A stretch of 64,000 nucleotides of DNA from a virus. This document shows, in pieces, positions 1,846 through 64,000 of this stretch (within the stretch, counting starts at the first letter, position 1; each line of letters starts with the position of its first letter). The DNA lies in IMG/VR virus record IMGVR_UViG_3300042731_007021, positions 17,162 to 81,161 of that record. One strand, written 5' to 3'. Below the pieces are notes generated by a model. That model was not told the origin of the DNA. It did not search any database and worked only from the letters and a program-made list of their open reading frames with translations. The position numbers were made by a program, and so were the translations under genes.

Positions 1846-4112
1846 TGAATATTTAAGCTTGAGAAGGTGGCCAGCACTGTGCTGACTCCTGTCCCTGACT
1901 CTTTAAATGTGCCAGGGGGCAACTCTTCCCAGTGGTCTGCGATAGGTTGTAACTGTTCTACCTGCTTTGGACCTCCCGCGCAGATAGCCACCACCGTGCC
2001 CCCTGGCTTGACGAATTTTAGCGCGTGTTTGATGTGTGCTATATCCTGCCACTTTTCGAAAGGAGGGTTCATGATAACGGCATCATATAGGCCAAAAACA
2101 TTCAATTTCAGGAAATCGTCGAATATAAGATTATGGCCTTTCAATTCCAGAATCTCGCGCAATGTGTGATTAATCTCACAACAGTCCACATCGGCCCCTT
2201 TTTCCCTCAGCTTGTCAGCAATTGCCGCACTGGCCGCTGATGGTTCCAAAACCTTAGGCCTGTCATCAGGGTCACTGAAATCCAGACCGGAATAGTCAAT
2301 CATTTTATCCACAATATGCGCCGGCGTCGGAAAATACCCAGGGATGTTAGAGAATTGCAGGCTGTTAATTTTCATGCGCAAGGCGTCGGCCTGCTCATCC
2401 TGTTCCGTCCTTTTCTCCTTTAAAAGGTTCCATAGAGCCACCGTGGTTTTATCGTCACTCCGTGGCTTGCCAGTGCCTACCCGGTAAGAATGATAACCGT
2501 TCGGGATGTTTTCGCATTCCTCAGCCATGCAACCGTAAACGGCTTTTTTAGTCTTGATGTGCTGCAATTCAGGCGGGACGGTGCCTCGTTCGTGAAGGTC
2601 CGCAAGGGCATACAAGGCTTTTTGCGTCCTCTGCAGGCGGTAACCCTCCAGGCGGGCGTGTTCGGCCTGTGCTAACCGTTTCGGCGTGTTCGTGAGTCGA
2701 TCCGCTAACTTATCATTAACCTGGTTAGTCAACCTATCCGCCATGGCGCGAAGATTCGCGGCGGTAGCGGCGGTAGCGGTGCTTTTGCTCTCTGTGGCTG
2801 GCTTTTGGCTGTCAGGGGTGCGGACAGTAGTGCCCTTTCCCGGTCCGCTTCCGTCCGGGTCATCATCAGGCGAAACGGCCGTGTAACGTTCTGGCAGGCT
2901 GTCGGTCTTACCGTACCAGCACCCGTTGTATCGTGACCAGCGGAAGCCGTGAGCCTTCAATTCGTCGCGGGTGGCTTCGTCCGGCTTTGCATTGAATACA
3001 ATCTCAGTGAACCCCGGCTTCGTGCCCGGCCGGGTGGTGAATTCCTGGGGGCCAGCTGTAGGGGCGTTGTCGGCGTTGGATTTCCGGCTGGACTTCACAA
3101 TGCTTGAAGGAATGGCCCATGCTCCTACTGGTACGCTCTCAGGCTTGGCGGGAGCGTCTTTGTAACTTAGAGCCAGCTTTTTTATGGTCCAGCCGCTTGA
3201 GTTGGAGTGATTGCCGGGCTCTGTCAGGTAATAGCCGCTGCCCATGCTGTACTTTTCCCGGTGTTCCGTTTCTCTTTCACTGATGCGCCATCCGAAGCCA
3301 ATGGATTTATCTTCAAAAGTGATTGAATGTAAGGGGTGGGCGTCCGCATAGGCTTGCGCTTCGGCTTCGCTGTTGAATAACGTGGCGGGCTTTACTTCAT
3401 CATGCCAGTGTGATTGCTCTCCCTTGTAATGATAGGAACCGTTACTATAGAACTCCTCCTCAATGGCCGGATAAGCCTCAAACCAGCGGAGGGCCATACC
3501 GCGGACGGCTTGCGGGAGTTCGGTCCCGTCTTCCATTTGAGCATTAGCGGCGGCTTTGCGCATCTCGCTAAAAATGTCGCGGGTGTGAGTTGACCAGGCT
3601 AGAATGATGAACTCTTCCCCGTGGCTGGCGAAGTAGTCTGTCATAATGTCGGAATCATTCACGCGGCGTTCAGCCACAATCACGGCCTTTGCATTGGCCG
3701 GCATGCGTTGGCGGACTTGTTCAGTGAACTTGTCGCGGCGTTTCTGCGCCTGTTCGCGTTCGATCTCCTGTTGACGTATGCGGGCCTCCTGGCGCTGTTG
3801 TGCCTGGGTTAACTTTTCGGCGGCTTTGGCTTCGCTGATCGGCTGCACTTGATAGCGTTCGGCCTGTTGTGCGTAATCCTTTGCGCTGTATTCGTCCAGT
3901 TCGGAGGTCTCTCCGTCTTCCCATGCAATTAGAATCTCGCTGTTTACAGGCTTCAGGCCGTGTGATCCGAATATTGACATATTGCCGCCGGTGTCGCTGA
4001 TCCGGCAAATATAGCCGGTTCGGCTGTTGGCTGCGTCGTAGTGAGCTACAGGCTGTCCAATGTAATAGGGCGCTGCCTGGGTGATGTCGGAGTTTTGTGC
4101 CGGGTTGTTCAT
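1842..4112 (-). CDS. Multidomain (polyvalent-type) protein with C-terminal SAM-dependent N6-adenine-type DNA methyltransferase domain
   Basis: YFPTP, VLEPSA (motif I-like), IMNPPF (motif IV), LKFVKPGG and FKESGTGV in the last ~170 aa; ~580-aa N-terminal extension. Confidence 0.8.
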   Translation of the reverse strand: MNNPAQNSDITQAAPYYIGQPVAHYDAANSRTGYICRISDTGGNMSIFGSHGLKPVNSEILIAWEDGETSELDEYSAKDYAQQAERYQVQPISEAKAAEKLTQAQQRQEARIRQQEIEREQAQKRRDKFTEQVRQRMPANAKAVIVAERRVNDSDIMTDYFASHGEEFIILAWSTHTRDIFSEMRKAAANAQMEDGTELPQAVRGMALRWFEAYPAIEEEFYSNGSYHYKGEQSHWHDEVKPATLFNSEAEAQAYADAHPLHSITFEDKSIGFGWRISERETEHREKYSMGSGYYLTEPGNHSNSSGWTIKKLALSYKDAPAKPESVPVGAWAIPSSIVKSSRKSNADNAPTAGPQEFTTRPGTKPGFTEIVFNAKPDEATRDELKAHGFRWSRYNGCWYGKTDSLPERYTAVSPDDDPDGSGPGKGTTVRTPDSQKPATESKSTATAATAANLRAMADRLTNQVNDKLADRLTNTPKRLAQAEHARLEGYRLQRTQKALYALADLHERGTVPPELQHIKTKKAVYGCMAEECENIPNGYHSYRVGTGKPRSDDKTTVALWNLLKEKRTEQDEQADALRMKINSLQFSNIPGYFPTPAHIVDKMIDYSGLDFSDPDDRPKVLEPSAASAAIADKLREKGADVDCCEINHTLREILELKGHNLIFDDFLKLNVFGLYDAVIMNPPFEKWQDIAHIKHALKFVKPGGTVVAICAGGPKQVEQLQPIADHWEELPPGTFKESGTGVSTVLATFSSLNIH

Positions 4113-4175
4113 TGTTGGATTGCTCCTATTGTGTCGTTAATCTTTAAAGCGTCTTTCGCTTTGTCTGTGTTGCTT

Positions 4176-4415
4176 ATATTACATTAACTATAATGATGTA
4201 GTCAATATTTATTTTCTTGTTTTTATGCTTTGCTTGCCGGGCAAAGCATAAGGATGCTGTTTTGTTTGTCAAGTGCAATTTTTACAACTTTTGTAAAATC
4301 CTTGACCGGCGCGCCTGGGAAAGTTGCTGAAAACAGGTTGTTTAAATCTTGTTAAATCTTCGTTTTATGCTTTGCTTGCCGGGCAAAGCATATAGGTATA
4401 AATTTGATTTGTCAA
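4176..4415 (-). promoter_or_regulatory. Three tandem leftward sigma70 promoters
   Basis: TTGACT-18-TAATAT (4205-4176), TTGACA-16-TATGCT (4272-4245), TTGACA-17-TATGCT (4415-4387). Confidence 0.7.
4221..4392. repeat. 30-bp direct repeat (4221-4250, 4363-4392), each copy an inverted repeat TATGCTTTGC-N7-GCAAAGCATA
   Basis: ttttatgctttgcttgccgggcaaagcata occurs twice, overlapping the -10 boxes. Confidence 0.9.
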
Positions 4416-5227
4416 ACTTTATTTTTCTGGAGGTTTCCCCAGGAATGGCGCTGAATCGCTCCTATATAGATAGAAAAATTGGGTTTATGCAGGGTTTTTA
4501 GTTTGAATGTCTGATTAAGTGGCTTGGTTGGTTTGATGTTGAATGTGGGGGGATATGTAGCACGAAGCACGAAAATAAAAAAGTTGTGATTTCAGGTTTG
4601 CTGTGGATAAAATTTGGAGGTTCTAAAGCTGCCAGTTTTATGTGGGGCTGTTTTGGTGTGGGTGAGCCTGGATGATCGACTTTTGATAAGCTGAATTTAT
4701 ATGATAATAAGTAGTGAGAAGAAATAGAGAACTGGTTATTTTTTATACAATCTGTTTAAAATCAATGATTTAGTTATAGTGGGGTAGTACTCCGTTTTCA
4801 AACCGTGTTTACTACCCACCCAAAGTATTGGCAAAAAACGAGAATCTATTTTTTGCCGAAAATTTTTGTTTTCGTTTTTTTCCATTTACTTTTTGATAAT
4901 CTTGATCCCGCAAACGTTTTCGTTTTAGGGCGCTATTACTACTCTATTCTTTTTTTATGTTTATTATTTTTATATAAATAATTAAATATTTAATGTTTAT
5001 ATATAAAAGTAAAAGGATTGTAAAAAATGGATAGAAACCTAAGTTTTTAGATTGGTAATTTATTGTAATGATTGTTGTTGTTGGCCGTGGCTGAAAATTT
5101 TGGGTTTTTCATGGATGCTTTGATGTTGTAGGTTTTTGGTAAATGCGAATGATTCTTGGTTGTATTCGAATTCTCATTTATGCTTTTCTTTGGGTTTATA
5201 GGTTTTGGATGGTATCCCAGGCGAAAA

Positions 5228-8901: not shown

Positions 8902-9117
8902 ATGCCAGACAAAGCAATAGCCTCCCCCGACCCCGAGTTCTACGACCAGATCATCTACGCCCTGAGACGGCAACTCACCCGCCTGGATGAATTGGCCGAT
9001 CAACTTCACGACGCCCGTGACTACGCAGCCGAATTCCCTTACGAAGACGCCAGGCGGATGGAGGAGGCTATCGGAATTGTGGAGTTGGTCAAGGGAACGG
9101 TTGTTGGCGGCAAATAA
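8902..9117 (+). CDS. Hypothetical protein
   Basis: 71-aa helical ORF in operon. Confidence 0.55.
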   Translation: MPDKAIASPDPEFYDQIIYALRRQLTRLDELADQLHDARDYAAEFPYEDARRMEEAIGIVELVKGTVVGGK

Positions 9118-9118
9118 G

Positions 9119-9598
9119 ATGTCATTAACTCTTACTCCCATCACACTCAAACAGGCGAAAGAGTTTATACAGAAACTCCATCGGCACAATAAACCACCAA
9201 CCGGTTGGAAGTTTGGAGTCGGGGTAACTGAGGACGGCGTACTCGTCGGAGTGGCCACAGCCGGCCGCCCGATTGCCCGCCATTCAGATGACGGGGTAAC
9301 TTTGGAGATCAACAGAACCTGCACGGACGGCACCCAAAATGCTAACAGCATGTTGTATGGAGCAATCTGGAGAGCGGCTAAAGCTTTAGGTTACCGGCGC
9401 TGTATAACCTATACCCAAGCTGATGAAACCGGGGCCAGTTTAAGGGCTGCGGGGTGGGTAAAAGTAAAGAGATTAGCCCCCAGGAAGTCATGGGCGGAGT
9501 CCAGTGGGAAATTAAAAGACAAGAGAGACCCAGTTGGCAATGGAGGGGTGGAGAGAATTTTGTGGGAAATTAAAATTCAACAATCCACAAAAATTTAA
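9119..9598 (+). CDS. XF1762-like GNAT-fold protein (possibly Mom-related DNA modification)
   Basis: HRHNKPP, VGVATAGRPIAR, TLEINRTCTDG, SMLYGAIWRAAKALGY and GASLRAAGW motifs; start revised to ATG 9119. Confidence 0.7.
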   Translation: MSLTLTPITLKQAKEFIQKLHRHNKPPTGWKFGVGVTEDGVLVGVATAGRPIARHSDDGVTLEINRTCTDGTQNANSMLYGAIWRAAKALGYRRCITYTQADETGASLRAAGWVKVKRLAPRKSWAESSGKLKDKRDPVGNGGVERILWEIKIQQSTKI

Positions 9599-40229: not shown

Positions 40230-41609
40230 ATGACGTTAAACGCCGCAAATCACACGATGATGCTGGAGGGTAGCGGTGATGTTACACACATCGGTAATCC
40301 TGATTTCATTCTGCATGTAAAAAATTCACACCGGATTATCACCGCCAGTAATGAGTCGTGGCAACCGCTTGGAGTGCACTCCAGCTCCATTGCCGCCCAA
40401 ATCACAGTGGCTACCGCCAAATCATATCTGGACGATCTGGTTGCTAACGGGATTAATGCTATATCCTGTATGGTGCCTCAGAGTCTTTTTACGGATAATA
40501 CTCCGACATGGAACAATGAGGACGGCAATCCGCCATTTGACTCAGTAGTACCGTCAACCTCGTCGCTGGATTTTACCGATCCGAATTCTGCCTATTGGGC
40601 CAATGTGGACGAGATCATCAACTACGCGGCCACGAAGGGTATTATGTGTGGTTTAGCCTGCTGTTTCCTCGGTAATAGTTTCGGGTCAGAGGGGTGGGCA
40701 ACGCACATATCAGATAATGGCACAACACGAATGCAAGCTTACGGCGAGTGGTTGGGTAATCGTTATAAGGATTACCCAAATATATTTTGGATAATCGGCG
40801 GAGATGAGCATCCTGATTACGGCCCTGATCTGACCTCTCATATGGACTCTGTCGCGAATGGAATAAAAACCTACGATAAGCGGCATTTAATGACCGCACA
40901 CGGCAAGGATAACAATTCATCCTTAGATGACTATCCCGGTAAATCATGGCTCGACATTAACCTGAATTATTCTCTCCCATGGTCAAGTATATGCGCTCAA
41001 ATAAGGGGCGATTATCAGGAAACATCACCTTTGCCTGTTGTTCAGGGTGAGACGACATTCGGCAATCAGGATGGGCAAACTGATCTAGGCGTAATGAGAT
41101 CGGTCTATCAAGGTATATTACACGGTGGTTTTGGTCATTTTGCAGGTATGGCTCCGCTTTGGGGATTCGGCTGTTCTGCTATGGATGTGGTTAAAAATGA
41201 TGGTACCTATACATGGCAGCAGACCGTTAATCCAGGGCATTACGGATTTCAATACTTACAATATGCGAGACGATTGCAGGTAGCACGTGATTTACCCGAG
41301 CTAACACCTGACTACGCTGGAACTTTCGTAACAGCGGGAAAAGGAACGGAAGGTTCGTCTTATTCCCCGGTCGTCGCGGATTCGACTCAATTAGTGGCGT
41401 TTTGCAATCAAGGCGCGGATTTAACGGTCGACCTGTCTCAATTTGACGGGAGTTTAACAGCTCGCTGGTTTGACCCAACGGATGGCAGTGTGACTACTGA
41501 CGGAGGCAGCCCATACACAAACTCAGGGTCAAACCAATTCACAACACCAGATAGTGGGGACTGGGTATTGTTGCTGGATCTCGTATCTTTAGGGTTGGGT
41601 GATCCGTGA
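40230..41609 (+). CDS. DUF4038/apiosidase-like TIM-barrel glycoside hydrolase with C-terminal collagen-binding-like domain
   Basis: PNSAYWANVDEII, YGEWLGNRYKDYPNIFWIIGGD, HLMTAH, PVVQGE, ARWFDPTDG...DWVLLL. Confidence 0.75.
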   Translation: MTLNAANHTMMLEGSGDVTHIGNPDFILHVKNSHRIITASNESWQPLGVHSSSIAAQITVATAKSYLDDLVANGINAISCMVPQSLFTDNTPTWNNEDGNPPFDSVVPSTSSLDFTDPNSAYWANVDEIINYAATKGIMCGLACCFLGNSFGSEGWATHISDNGTTRMQAYGEWLGNRYKDYPNIFWIIGGDEHPDYGPDLTSHMDSVANGIKTYDKRHLMTAHGKDNNSSLDDYPGKSWLDINLNYSLPWSSICAQIRGDYQETSPLPVVQGETTFGNQDGQTDLGVMRSVYQGILHGGFGHFAGMAPLWGFGCSAMDVVKNDGTYTWQQTVNPGHYGFQYLQYARRLQVARDLPELTPDYAGTFVTAGKGTEGSSYSPVVADSTQLVAFCNQGADLTVDLSQFDGSLTARWFDPTDGSVTTDGGSPYTNSGSNQFTTPDSGDWVLLLDLVSLGLGDP

Positions 41610-60645: not shown

Positions 60646-60984
60646 TTAGTTTGCCTTACGCATTCCGAAATGAATCTGCGCACAGATTTCACAAAACCAA
60701 ATACCGCAATACAAGCAGCGGTAGGCATAAATCACCTTCACCTTATGGTCACAATCGGGGCATCGAATTACTGTTTTGTCAGTAGTCATACCCCAACCGC
60801 TTTGCTCTTTAATCATCTTGACCTGGCCATACATGATTTTGAGGTTCTGCACTTTCTGTTCAGGCGTCGCCTTGCTCTCATAAACCGGCAAATTAGCCAA
60901 CTCATCAATAGTAGATAAACCTACCTCCGGCGGCTCGTAAGGCAGTGTGTCTATGTGTACTGATTTCGTTTCGTTGTCACACAT
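60646..60984 (-). CDS. Hypothetical protein with C-terminal Cys-rich Zn finger
   Basis: CPDC...CLYC...CEIC..H. Confidence 0.7.
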   Translation of the reverse strand: MCDNETKSVHIDTLPYEPPEVGLSTIDELANLPVYESKATPEQKVQNLKIMYGQVKMIKEQSGWGMTTDKTVIRCPDCDHKVKVIYAYRCLYCGIWFCEICAQIHFGMRKAN

Positions 60985-61026
60985 GGTTTCAATCCGGTTT
61001 ACTGGTTATGGTCGCCCGTTATGGCG

Positions 61027-61209
61027 CTAATCATAAACGCCGACGCTTGTTTTCATCTCGCAGCGCGAGCAGGTCCAAGTTACATAGGTGTCGTGTTCAT
61101 CCTTTGTCTCAGGTGGATAGTCGTGATCGCAATCTGGATCGCCGCCGCTTGTGCTCACGTCGTGAGGACAACAGTAGTCTGGTAACTCTATTTTTCGTGA
61201 TGCTGTCAT
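61027..61209 (-). CDS. Cassette ORF, small Cys/His-rich protein
   Basis: CCPH, CDHDY, CSRC; GGAG RBS. Confidence 0.65.
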   Translation of the reverse strand: MTASRKIELPDYCCPHDVSTSGGDPDCDHDYPPETKDEHDTYVTWTCSRCEMKTSVGVYD

Positions 61210-61250
61210 GTTTGTATCTCCGTAGATAGTCGCGCCATTTAGCTAATTCG

Positions 61251-61484
61251 TTACCTTGCCCTAGTGTTCCAATCTGCAATAACGTCCCGCTTAGTGCCCC
61301 GTCGCATGGATACGCAATAGTTTATACATCCAATGCGCCATGTCGGGCGCTTAGTAGGGGTCTCATTTACCGCAGGAGCAGCTGGTGCCCCGCAAAAGGG
61401 GCAAGGTAACAAGCAAGTCAACTCGGACGCTGCGCGTCCTTGCGCCTGGTCGAGTTCGCCATCTCCTGGTAGTCCGTCGCCCAT
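61251..61484 (-). CDS. Cassette ORF, Lar-like restriction-alleviation protein
   Basis: LLPCPFCG...CINYC...IADWNTRA motif; AGGAG RBS and ATG lie inside the attC. Confidence 0.75.
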   Translation of the reverse strand: MGDGLPGDGELDQAQGRAASELTCLLPCPFCGAPAAPAVNETPTKRPTWRIGCINYCVSMRRGTKRDVIADWNTRAR

Positions 61485-61528
61485 ATCAGCTCCTGTGGCG
61501 CGTAGCGCCGGTTACTTTGTCGTTATAA
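61404..61528 (+). other. attC site (125 bp)
   Basis: AGGTAAC-aagca-AGTCAACT...GGTTACT-ttgtc-GTTATAA; inner stem cggacgctgcgcg/cgcgtagcgccg. Confidence 0.85.
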
Positions 61529-61702
61529 ATCCGTTTTTATCTTGCTACACGCTTCTACAAATTCGCGCATTGCCTTGGTAGTGTCTTCGGCAGCCTGCTT
61601 CACGCCAACCATCGCCGCCTTTAATTTTTCCGCTTCCATTTTCAAGGCTTCGATTTTTTCCATTGCTTCGGTGGTGTCTATTTTCAGTTCGGCCTTTGCC
61701 AT
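61523..61702 (-). CDS. Cassette ORF, 59-aa helical protein (not in ORF track)
   Basis: MAKAELKIDTTEAMEKIEALK...SKIKTDL*; GGAG RBS; stop TAA formed by the core site. Confidence 0.7.
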   Translation of the reverse strand: MAKAELKIDTTEAMEKIEALKMEAEKLKAAMVGVKQAAEDTTKAMREFVEACSKIKTDL

Positions 61703-61723
61703 TTCGGTTTCTCCAAAAAGTAT

Positions 61724-61798
61724 TTATAACAAGTCGTATCAGTTCGCTTCGCTTGGGACTTCCGCTTACGCTCCAGCCCCTGTACTCAGTTGTTATGG
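61724..61798 (+). other. attC site (75 bp)
   Basis: TTATAAC-aagtc-GTATCAGT...CCTGTAC-tcagtt-GTTATGG. Confidence 0.8.
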
Positions 61799-62209
61799 CG
61801 TTATATTCCACTTTGCCAATTCAATAGCTTTCCGCTTGGTCTCTAAATGAGCCTCACCAAATCCAGAGCATTGATTCTGAAAGTAAGTTATCTCTTCGCC
61901 TGCTTGCTGTATCGCTCTTAGGTAATACTGCTCTACCCATGAGTGGTCAAAAACAAACCGACCTTGTGCGGTTCCTCGCTCAAATACCTTATCTGGCTGT
62001 CTCGGGTCGATTACTACCGTTTCAATTTCAAAACCGCGTTCTCTGCACATGTTTTGTACGCGCTTTGCCTCCACATGGTCTGCAAAAGCCACCCGGTCGC
62101 CTTCTTTCAAGGCTTCAACCATTGCTACTGTTCTACCTGTTCTGCGTGCTGATTGAAAATATGTGTATGCCATGCCTTTCATTGCTTGGGCAATTCCAAA
62201 AATATCCAT
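61793..62209 (-). CDS. Cassette ORF, hypothetical protein with P-loop-like RRTGRT
   Basis: Start revised to MDIFG (GGAG RBS); stop in core site. Confidence 0.75.
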   Translation of the reverse strand: MDIFGIAQAMKGMAYTYFQSARRTGRTVAMVEALKEGDRVAFADHVEAKRVQNMCRERGFEIETVVIDPRQPDKVFERGTAQGRFVFDHSWVEQYYLRAIQQAGEEITYFQNQCSGFGEAHLETKRKAIELAKWNITP

Positions 62210-62239
62210 CGTCGTTTCTCCAAAGTTGTACCAATCGCG

Positions 62240-62302
62240 CCATAACAAGGCGCATCAAACGGACGCGCAAAAACCGCAGGCCCTTGTGCTAATTCGTTAG
62301 AA
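62240..62302 (+). other. attC site (63 bp)
   Basis: CCATAAC-aaggc-GCATCAAA...CTTGTGC-taattc-GTTAGAA. Confidence 0.85.
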
Positions 62303-62304
62303 CG

Positions 62305-62514
62305 CTACTTGCAGTTCACTGGCTTTCCTTTATCCGTCAGTTTCACGGAGAGAACAGCCTTCATTGCAAAATTCGCGTACCAGTATTCATGCCCATCAAG
62401 GCACACGGTGTCGTAGTCGTCGGGGTCACTTCCCAATGTCCAAGTCTTGTAGATCATGGTTCCAAAGAAACCCATCATCACCACTACAGCCAGCCATAAA
62501 AGTCCGTCTTTCAT
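62305..62514 (-). CDS. Cassette ORF, small membrane-anchored protein
   Basis: N-terminal TM helix, VCLDGHEY...GKPVNC; GAGGT RBS. Confidence 0.75.
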   Translation of the reverse strand: MKDGLLWLAVVVMMGFFGTMIYKTWTLGSDPDDYDTVCLDGHEYWYANFAMKAVLSVKLTDKGKPVNCK

Positions 62515-62526
62515 TTGAACCTCGCG

Positions 62527-62579
62527 TTCTAACAAGTTGGTCAGGCCGCCTTCGGCCGCCGCTTACCTCGGCGTTATGC
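62527..62579 (+). other. attC site (53 bp, short)
   Basis: TTCTAAC-aagtt-GGTCAGGC...GCTTACC-tcggc-GTTATGC. Confidence 0.8.
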
Positions 62580-62780
62580 GTCGTCATCAGCAAACCAAAC
62601 AGTCACCACGGATAGCGGCGGAACAACCAGGCCAGCACCGTGAATCATTTCGCATTTGTAGTTTGATTCAAAATCGCAAGATGCTAGTTTTACGGAATTC
62701 CAAATCCACGAACCGCCGCCAATCACAATGACGAATACAACAATCAGTTCAATCATGGTAAAACCTCTTTGCTTTTTCAT
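62574..62780 (-). CDS. Cassette ORF, prepilin-type N-terminal cleavage/methylation protein
   Basis: MKKQRG-FTMIELIVVFVIV class III signal; stop in core site. Confidence 0.8.
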   Translation of the reverse strand: MKKQRGFTMIELIVVFVIVIGGGSWIWNSVKLASCDFESNYKCEMIHGAGLVVPPLSVVTVWFADDDA

Positions 62781-62810
62781 TTCCATTTCTCCAGTTAAAT
62801 TAAATAAATC

Positions 62811-62912
62811 GCATAACAAGCGCATAAACTCCGACCCAAAAAGCAGTTGGCATCCGCGCGTTAATCAAGCATCGTGGCCCGCTTTTTGGGAGGGTTATGC
62901 TTCACGTTAACT
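62811..62912 (+). other. attC site (102 bp)
   Basis: GCATAAC-aagcg-CATAAACT...GGTTATG-cttcac-GTTAACT; stem cccaaaaagc/gctttttggg. Confidence 0.9.
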
Positions 62913-62914
62913 GT

Positions 62915-63088
62915 CTATTCTATAACTACCTCAATATCTTCAGGGATACCGAAGGGTTTATCACAGATTTCGCATTCTGAGTCCCCGCCACGAGGGTCAG
63001 AAAGCCAGCCTTGATTTTCAAACCCGCAGTGCGGGCAAATGATCTTCGCGTTGTAGCTGTTAAGTATGAATTTCTTTGCTTGTTCCAT
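62915..63088 (-). CDS. Cassette ORF, 57-aa Zn-ribbon protein (not in ORF track)
   Basis: MEQAKKF...CPHC...CEIC...EVVIE*; GGAG RBS. Confidence 0.7.
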   Translation of the reverse strand: MEQAKKFILNSYNAKIICPHCGFENQGWLSDPRGGDSECEICDKPFGIPEDIEVVIE

Positions 63089-63107
63089 AGGTTCTCTCCG
63101 ATAAAAC

Positions 63108-63169
63108 GACTAACAATTATATCCAGCCGACCTTCGCTACGCCCAGGCTGCTGATAATTGCCGTTATAA
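63108..63169 (+). other. attC site (62 bp)
   Basis: GACTAAC-aatta-TATCCAGC...GCTGATA-attgcc-GTTATAA. Confidence 0.88.
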
Positions 63170-63376
63170 CGCTTCCAGTTGCTTTTGCACCCATTGTCTC
63201 GCCGCTATCCTAGCCTGCGCCGCACTCTTTAGTCCTTCCGCAATCGGAAAAGATTTTCTCGGTTTTGTGTGCGGGTTATCAGGAATCGTCGGATCATCAA
63301 ACAAACATTGCCCGTCAATGCGAGCAAAATACCCATTGCTACATTTTCCAATATATAATTTTGGGTTCATTTCCAC
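63164..63376 (-). CDS. Cassette ORF, hypothetical protein
   Basis: GAGGT RBS; stop in core site. Confidence 0.7.
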   Translation of the reverse strand: MEMNPKLYIGKCSNGYFARIDGQCLFDDPTIPDNPHTKPRKSFPIAEGLKSAAQARIAARQWVQKQLEAL

Positions 63377-63390
63377 ACTTTTACCTCGCG

Positions 63391-63437
63391 TTATAACAAG
63401 TTAATCCAGTGCGAGCTTCTCTTCGCTCGCCATTATG
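63391..63437 (+). other. Truncated attC (R'', L'' and inner hairpin present; L' and the G of R' lost)
   Basis: TTATAAC-aagtt-AATCCAGT-gcgagc...gctcgc-cATTATG. Confidence 0.6.
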
Positions 63438-63621
63438 TGCCTTCAACCTTCAGGGTTTCGCGCTCAAATACTCCAGGCAATTTGTTGAGCCGTATTTCCA
63501 CCTCTACTCCTTGGTAGGTAATAATGCAGCTCGGGTCGTCACCAGCGTCCAGTAAAGTGCCGAAGTTTTGTAAATGGTCTGCCAGCCATGCTTTTGCAGG
63601 CTGTTGTAAATCTGCAATCAT
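63433..63621 (-). CDS. Cassette ORF, hypothetical protein (start revised to MIADL)
   Basis: AGGAGG RBS. Confidence 0.7.
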   Translation of the reverse strand: MIADLQQPAKAWLADHLQNFGTLLDAGDDPSCIITYQGVEVEIRLNKLPGVFERETLKVEGT

Positions 63622-63643
63622 GTTTCTCCTCCTGCGCACAGGC

Positions 63644-63703
63644 GCAGAACAATGTTATCTAGTTGATCTCGCTATGCTCAGCGACAAAGTTCAGTCGTTA
63701 GGC
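63644..63703 (+). other. Degenerate attC (60 bp)
   Basis: GCAGAAC-aatgt-...tcgct/agcga hairpin...tcagtc-GTTAGGC; L boxes pair poorly. Confidence 0.55.
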
Positions 63704-63877
63704 ATCCTTGCATTTACCTACTGGAGGCACCCATTTGTATCCAGTAACTCGCATCCATAAATAATCTGTCTGCCTGGTTTGCTGTGCGCCACACCGACTA
63801 CATACCCGCTTAGGGTCGGCCACCAGCCCCAAAACTCCTTGGTCGACGGGTTGCCAATCGTGCTTACGGTTATTCAT
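63698..63877 (-). CDS. Cassette ORF, small Cys/His protein (start revised to MNNRKH)
   Basis: KHDW...CSRCG; stop TAA in core site GCCTAAC. Confidence 0.65.
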   Translation of the reverse strand: MNNRKHDWQPVDQGVLGLVADPKRVCSRCGAQQTRQTDYLWMRVTGYKWVPPVGKCKDA

Positions 63878-63933
63878 ACAGGCATCCTCGATCAATAGAC
63901 TCCGGTTTCCACGTCCGCAACTTCGGCGCTTAC

Positions 63934-64000
<67 letters not shown>

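Follow-up and report, generated by a model that had tools for sequence, protein, structure and literature searches.

What is a run of small open reading frames (ORFs), each separated from the next by an imperfect palindrome, doing at the end of a phage genome, and how were its units joined? The question arises at the right end of a 64,000-nucleotide stretch of the viral contig IMGVR_UViG_3300042731_007021 (positions 17,162 to 81,161 of this IMG/VR record; hereafter, the window). The window spans 64 kb of the ~81-kb contig, ~17 kb to its left lying outside the analysis, and its predicted structural and replication genes mark it as a phage contig. From position 61018 to the window end, small ORFs on the minus (-) strand alternate with imperfect palindromes. 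The region 61018-63934 very probably holds at least nine integron-type cassettes, each composed of a small ORF and an attC site, without a nearby integron integrase (IntI). Such an array is termed a CALIN, for clustered attC sites that lack an integron integrase.

Recombination footprints across the ORFs

The preliminary description of this DNA had proposed that the R'' box of each cassette complements the core site on the far side of the cassette's own ORF, and had listed six such word pairs. All 12 words lie where it placed them and all pairs are exact reverse complements. The R'' coordinates that it gave are word starts, and the AAC ends are located at 61410, 61730, 62246, 62533, 62817 and 63397. 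We scored eight R'' ends against ten core sites in a pairing matrix and found perfect runs of 8-12 bp across the cassette's own ORF in six of eight cassettes, plus one remnant in cassette 0 (Table 1 lists runs and matches per 12 positions for cassettes 1-8). Pairing of R'' with the in-array R' of the same site was as poor as had been claimed, with perfect runs of only 4, 5, 4, 4, 4, 4, 0 and 3. Permutation pointed the same way: the observed pairing was the sole one of 40,320 (8 x 8) that attained the observed sum by either measure. The one exception foreseen, the cassette at 62907-63163, does match at GTTA only. Cassette 8, which has a mutated core (ATTA at 63432), retains a residual match of 8/12. 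The boxes themselves are well conserved, with TAAC at seven of the eight R'' boxes (GAAC at the other) and GTTA at nine of the ten cores (ATTA at the other).

Pairing across the ORF is the known, textbook signature of chimeric attC sites, found here in a new place. Strands are exchanged after the first base of GTTRRRY, before the second, and the folded bottom strand determines the orientation of insertion (PMC8876359); integron arrays are made of chimeric attC sites (PMC4889954). Each unit of the window array would once have been a circle, opened and joined by IntI between G and TT on the folded bottom strand. The last six bases of the cassette's own R' would then lie at its far end and the in-array attC would be a chimera of two cassettes, which accounts for R'' pairing over the ORF rather than inside the site. 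The same footprint can be read in class 1 integron L028, where GGCTAAC of the dfrA12 cassette pairs with the cassette's own start, GTTAGCC (7/7), and ATGTCTAAC of the aadA2 cassette pairs with GTTAGACAT (9/9). The L028 footprints were read by eye, as the automatic script gave no chain (one footprint being 6/8). Circularisation and folding of each cassette in silico, proposed earlier as a check, agreed with the proposal at six of the eight sites, where the fold energy of the bottom-strand DNA was lowered (-21.4 to -31.8, -6.3 to -9.6, -10.1 to -14.3, -9.7 to -17.6, -17.6 to -24.4 and -6.9 to -12.4), and not at the other two, one unchanged at -10.7 and one raised from -8.1 to -6.6. The results support the reading of the array as the product of past site-specific insertion of circular cassettes and fit a crossover of the IntI type at the G|TT point. 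What the footprint shows is that recombination of this kind made the cassettes and joined them; insertion in this phage genome is not implied. Further, the word pairs are symmetric and stay the same under both strand readings, so the footprint alone cannot fix the boundaries or assign each attC to its ORF.

attC architecture and the integrase

Strand and boundaries were set by the architecture of the sites. The class 1 attCs of L028, in which the dfrA12, gcuF and aadA2 genes define the top strand, read AAC, a 5-nt spacer, 3 bp, a bulged C, a helix, a 6-nt spacer and GTT, and in all three the bulge is on the R''-side arm. This geometry is present on the plus (+) strand in six of the eight window sites (spacers of ~5 and 6 nt, 3-4 bp, one R''-side bulged base and a helix), the bulged base being C in three, T in two and A in one. 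Alignment and folding of 12 phage sites (MAFFT and RNAalifold) yielded no consensus structure. We built a covariance model, R1, from 21 bacterial attCs, all beside IntI genes, with a hand-written structure of 10 pairs; R1 is separate from the model of IntegronFinder. Class 1 attCs outside its training set scored 40.3, 34.4 and 22.9 bits. In the window, R1 recognised five of the eight sites at E<0.05 (in order of score, A4, A3, A6, A1 and A5, with E-values of 0.00013 to 0.042 in 4,935 nt; Table 1), and the site ends were those drawn beforehand, save for A5. All window matches are on the + strand, the same sites scoring 4-5 bits on the - strand with filters off, and R1 had no match elsewhere in the 64 kb at E<=1. 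The model also found all six sites of a related viral contig, L005, on the strand opposite intI, and the L005 integrase sits at the canonical place for an array whose + strand is the attC top strand. Helix geometry, R1 strand scores and the position of the L005 integrase thus support the cassette boundaries drawn in the preliminary description, which took the + strand as attC top strand. Read on this strand, the footprint identifies these small early genes as very probable integron cassettes and gives their exact borders.

With eight sites and no integrase found in the 64 kb, the array is a CALIN as defined by Cury et al. (2016; PMC4889954), whereas L005 is a complete integron. None of the 20 largest ORFs of the window has a recombinase domain. 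L005 encodes a 323-aa tyrosine recombinase (TIGR02249, 414.5 bits against a cut-off of 265) that matches VchIntIA (2a3v) end to end (E 1e-69) and is 49% identical to IntI1. In L005, 41 nt separate the first core site from the intI ATG and the six cassettes carry footprints of 9, 9, 8, 8, 9 and 10 bp, a layout that is canonical at the DNA level. The genes just beyond intI (endolysin, holin and DksA-like) make L005 phage-like. In bacteria, we detected IntI above the cut-off in four of five genomes with a homologue of the cassette 3 protein and in none of 14 control genomes, and in 45 of 121 genomes of one bacterial class (a tally that includes the unpublished genome G044). The frequency of IntI in candidate hosts makes a host enzyme acting in trans plausible, and we infer that the recombining enzyme was an IntI from the host, or from a phage that was co-infecting or ancestral. 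That a phage intI was lost is plausible too. The insertion of cassettes at attG sites would offer a route for IntI to place cassettes outside an integron, for example at a GTT in a phage (bioRxiv 10.1101/2022.09.11.507474).

The protein of cassette 3, with 45 relatives, allowed us to follow one cassette into other contexts. The loci examined were 27 from viral and genome collections and 33 of 37 from metagenomes; the closest homologues (P0002-P0004) are 69-72% identical and one L005 cassette is a homologue at 54%. Cassette flanks at four loci represent two elements, L005 (= L079) and L007 (= L024). In L005 and L007/L024 the gene is bracketed by GTT.../...AAC inverted repeats with the placement around the ORF that the window shows. 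In all three, 30-39 nt separate the start of the core site from the ATG that follows, and AAC lies at the stop codon or adjoins it. The boundaries thus recur between contexts, a check proposed in the preliminary description, and among the loci examined we saw no case of shifted cassette boundaries around a cassette-3 homologue. The L024/L007 element (4413-4476 and flanks) belongs to a prophage in a metagenome-assembled genome of Gallionellales, in which two such cassettes neighbour the gene for a lambda-type integrase; a separate contig of that genome encodes an IntI (480 bits). A 91.6 kb contig of genome G002, with IntI and a cassette-3 homologue, was considered as a relative of this phage and rejected by a search with the family A DNA polymerase (PolA).

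Coding strand of phage and bacterial cassettes

All nine cassette ORFs of the window lie on the attC bottom strand and none on the top strand. Applied by hand, an ORF-fill rule assigned seven of eight cassettes to the bottom strand and none to the top, with one ambiguous; the - strand likewise carries the ORF of cassette 0. Protein similarity supports five of the nine ORFs on the bottom strand (the Lar family, an N-terminal methylation motif, two PHROG families and the 45-member family of cassette 3), and the core site usually supplies its TAA as the stop codon. Bottom-strand coding means that the array is read with the leftward gene block of the phage, whose replication genes are on the same strand. 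The L005 cassettes are also bottom-coded and share the strand of intI, and arrays of the relatives would be read towards attI and intI, not away. Classical integrons (class 1 and the chromosomal integrons of Proteobacteria) share with these arrays the attC architecture, the crossover point, the chimeric sites and, taking the attC top strand as reference, the placement and direction of intI and of the first core site. They differ in having the ORFs on the top strand, read from the cassette promoter (Pc) away from intI, as in 26 of 26 decidable bacterial cassettes and in dfrA12, gcuF and aadA2.

A query with the L005 IntI recovered 32 IMG/VR loci, 24 of them non-duplicate, and in 18 of these 24 a footprint chain starts 27-63 nt from the intI start. 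Our first site scanner was noisy (17.5 calls and 14-24 two-link chains per shuffled window), so we used only chains starting beside intI, together with the covariance model. Among 65 IMG/VR cassettes beside IntI, 24 were bottom-coded, 3 top-coded and 38 ambiguous, compared with 0, 26 and 22, respectively, of the bacterial cassettes beside IntI that the same script identified (chains in 11 of 18 regions). No chain came from bacterial loci L069 and L071. The difference is large (Fisher p = 4e-12), yet what speaks against reading it as a phage trait is that it stems from one IntI query, one bacterial class, a check for phage genes in L005 only and a crude rule that left many cassettes ambiguous, so that IntI lineage and the label phage or bacterium are confounded. 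All nine R1 matches at E<=0.05 in the 24 IMG/VR loci are antisense to intI. The IntIs of viral contigs form two clades, separate from the bacterial and class 1 proteins. One clade of viral-contig integrons (L041, L044, L046, L047, L048, L051 and L060) has the usual attC geometry with G, not C, as the bulged base of the top strand; its bottom strand would carry C where classical sites have an extra-helical G, and R1 mostly misses its sites.

These loci can also be compared with two described systems. The inverted-integrase integrons of Treponema likewise have intI and cassette genes transcribed in the same direction (PMC3607928, PMC4889954), but there intI itself is flipped and transcribed towards attI (PMC3607928). 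In L005 and the 17 other viral loci, with the first core 27-63 nt from the intI start, intI is transcribed away from attI and it is the cassette ORFs that are flipped. The CALINs described in virulent and temperate phages without intI resemble the window array in their attC arrays and small ORFs (Qi et al., 2023; PMC9892861). They number 17, with at least two sites each, whereas the window array has at least nine cassettes, all bottom-coded, and is linked to viral contigs with IntI. The main text of that study, the supplementary tables of which may list similar phages, does not mention ORF polarity relative to attC, and a limited search of the open-access literature (supplementary files aside) gave no statement that phage cassettes are bottom-strand coded. 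The footprint and phage CALINs being known already, gene orientation is the part that looks new, and novelty rests on the reversal of the coding strand and on how general this appears to be among viral contigs.

The content of the cassettes adds to this picture. Four of ten reverse-coded ORFs tested had strong Pfam matches, one to RtcB and three to N6_N4 DNA methylases, which marks such bottom-strand ORFs as real genes. The RtcB (E 4.5e-89) and methylase cassettes stand beside IntI (L036:2655-3908, L030:3194-3817 and 4000-4608, L038:2781-3707) and look like counter-defence cargo. Together with the Lar-like and pilin-like proteins of the window, the DNA methylases and RtcB of the relatives suggest that the cargo consists of accessory genes for host take-over or counter-defence. 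DNA methylases are also among the cassette cargo of the phages of Qi et al. (2023), and IntI1 recombined five of six phage attCs tested there (PMC9892861).

The window and the related viral contigs suggest that phages use the same machinery as bacterial integrons for accessory genes, with the coding strand reversed. Bacterial integrons reportedly bank anti-phage defence genes. We tentatively propose, as a possibility held with reserve, that phages maintain a mirror-image integron system with the same IntI/attC chemistry, in which genes are carried on the recombinogenic bottom strand and read with the phage operon towards attI and intI. If so, mirror-image coding would keep the phage cassette pool transcriptionally incompatible with the defence-storing pool of bacteria, and Lar-like proteins, DNA methylases and RtcB would be examples of the counter-defence cargo in the phage pool. 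Transcription would leave the bottom strand displaced and foldable and, speculatively, could couple cassette shuffling to infection. Should reverse coding hold, it would supply a simple sequence rule to separate phage from bacterial cassettes and a list of compact candidate counter-defence genes with known borders, and would pose a testable question, namely, how polarity is set at cassette birth.

Alternative origins, array parts and phage setting

Several observations weigh against the integron-cassette reading. A tblastn search of the 64-kb window with an IntI query had no match at E<=10 (~17 kb of the contig being outside the window). Of the nine attCs, those of cassettes 0, 7 and 8 have degenerated or suffered deletion, and one cassette is without a footprint; A2 is only weakly recognised by R1. 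No cassette flanks were present at 49 of 53 loci with a cassette-3 homologue (L073 being a near-miss), so for the most part this is an ordinary gene of phages. Two wetland runs, each from a different study and one of them perhaps the source of this DNA, yielded contigs in which the array had no differing letters; neither excision or insertion variants nor joints were seen in these contigs, which drop rare variants. Within what contigs can show, there is no sign of current cassette turnover, and the eroded attCs and the missing footprint indicate that part of the array is probably fixed. The lack of an IntI match in the window, the unchanged array in both runs, the eroded attCs and the lost footprint would suit a fossil array, one that was built in the integron of a bacterium or of another phage, entered en bloc or long ago and is now fixed without an acting integrase; the footprint would travel wherever such an array goes. 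We nevertheless consider this origin rather unlikely, given that five to six attCs keep a good form and footprints of 8-12 bp, that the left edge is a clean core site directly beside a phage gene, that relatives retain a working-looking IntI beside such arrays and that IntI is common in candidate host groups, as the 45 genomes of one class illustrate.

Two other explanations do away with IntI altogether. A phage-encoded recombinase of another type could act on hairpins that merely resemble attC, which would suit the lack of IntI in the window, a coding direction unlike that of classical integrons and the several large window ORFs that belong to no family. This is improbable, considering that a model trained on bacterial attCs alone recovers the sites on a single strand and with their exact ends, that the same type of cassette stands beside a bona fide IntI in L005 and that the 20 largest window ORFs offer no recombinase domain. 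Less probable still, to the point of being very hard to sustain, is that the palindromes are regulatory or structural hairpins (terminators, repetitive extragenic palindrome (REP)-like elements or the promoter-stem-loops of T4-type phages) and the cross-ORF pairing a by-product. The sites do look the part: they are imperfect palindromes between genes, in a region whose small ORFs resemble early genes. Indeed, T4-type phages carry promoter-early stem-loop (PeSL) cassettes, small early genes with hairpins between them that are thought to shuffle as modules; PeSL elements carry promoters and shuffle by homology. The window array differs in its site-specific G|TT footprint and in having no promoter signal: promoter-like sites numbered 6 against 6.6 expected and terminator-like sites 9 against 5.4 +/- 2.6 expected from shuffled sequence, with few coinciding with attC sites. 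With both motifs at chance level, the earlier judgement that the palindromes are neither terminators nor REP-like hairpins stands. Nor did Rfam have a family match in the window, and a by-product would have to account for a cross-ORF pairing that was the best of all permutations. The integron-cassette origin remains the best explanation, and Table 1 lists the parts of the array accordingly.

Table 1. Parts of the window array from left to right. ORFs are all on the - strand; perfect runs and matches are those of R'' against the core site across the cassette's own ORF.
Feature	Position	Strand	ORF or boxes	Perfect run (bp)	Matches per 12	R1 (bits)	Remarks
Left-most core site	61018..61024	+	GTTATGG				Array left edge; directly after phage ORF 60646-60984, no attC before
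Cassette 0	61019..61250	+	61027-61209, 60 aa				attC is the remnant at 61230-61253
Cassette 1	61251..61522	+	61251-61484 as listed	12	12		Lar-like restriction-alleviation ORF
attC A1	61404..61528	+	R'' 61404-61410, in-array R' 61522-61528			18.3	5'-arm bulge helix of 8 bp
Cassette 2	61523..61792	+	61523-61702, 59 aa	9	10
attC A2	61724..61798	+				9.1 (E 0.62)	Weak; spacers 5/6, 3 bp, bulged T, 3 bp
Cassette 3	61793..62296	+	61793-62209, 138 aa	9	10		Largest cassette protein, 45 relatives
attC A3	62240..62302	+				24.0 on +, 5.2 on -
Cassette 4	62297..62573	+	62305-62535, 76 aa as listed	10	11
attC A4	62527..62579	+				27.1 on +, 4.3 on -	Most canonical; spacers 5/5, 3 bp, bulged C, 4 bp
Cassette 5	62574..62906	+	62574-62825, 83 aa	8	9
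attC A5	62811..62912	+				14.8	Aligned to 62811-62900 (12 nt short)
Cassette 6	62907..63163	+	62915-63088, 57 aa	4 (GTTA only)	7		Zinc-ribbon-like, phrog_16376 (E 2.4e-11)
attC A6	63108..63169	+				21.9
Cassette 7	63164..63432	+	63164-63376, 70 aa	10	10		attC 63391-63438 degenerate, closing core ATTA
Cassette 8	63433..63697	+	63433-63639, 68 aa	0	8
attC A8 (cassette 8)	63644-63703	+				7.3	Weak
Further cassette, start only	63698..63934	+	63698-63895				Cut by contig end, then 66 A

The left-most core site (GTTATGGCG at 61018) is identical to the core at 61792 and has no recognisable attI or attG features that could be scored. The attC remnant of cassette 0 is an internally deleted copy of the cassette 3 attC at 62235-62299: its R'' remnant, TCGCGCCAT at 61230, is followed after 3 nt by GCTAATTCGTTA at 61242, a gap that measures 44 nt in the cassette 3 site. 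Cassette 1 has a conserved CTTG beside its R'' box and a possible TTG start at 61412-61410; the 12-bp R'' word falls inside the Lar-like frame, so the attC overlaps the N-terminus of the protein. The cassette 5 protein carries a prepilin-type N-terminal methylation motif (PF07963, E 5.6e-07), a pilin-like protein within a phage accessory cassette, and a few short, loose-ended wetland contigs share the pilin motif. Short contigs of the two wetland runs, X1 and X2, share only the R''/L'' part of A2 or A1 (61724-61756 and 61389-61436) and are flanked on either side by sequence unlike the array, which in one case stops directly before the R'' box. Such contigs may represent further cassettes, with attCs related to A1 or A2, from these samples. 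The window closes with 66 consecutive A (63935-64000) that directly follow the last cassette ORF, probably an artefact of assembly or padding where the contig ends; the array may continue past this point.

The phage itself had no close company in the collections searched: positions 60900-63936 had no match in a phage DNA database, and a search of IMG/VR with the primase returned no related phages. A 44-nt exact word taken from where the window starts was absent from both the viral and the metagenome contig collections. A + strand block at ~15-44 kb encodes a gpA-type large terminase, an S49 prohead protease and a tail tube protein, and a - strand block at 44-60 kb encodes an SbcCD-like pair, PolA, helicases and a primase. 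The window also encodes a Mom-family protein (8987-9598, + strand, E 2.8e-06) and, inside the tail region, an apiosidase-like glycosidase with a collagen-binding-type domain (40230-41609, + strand).

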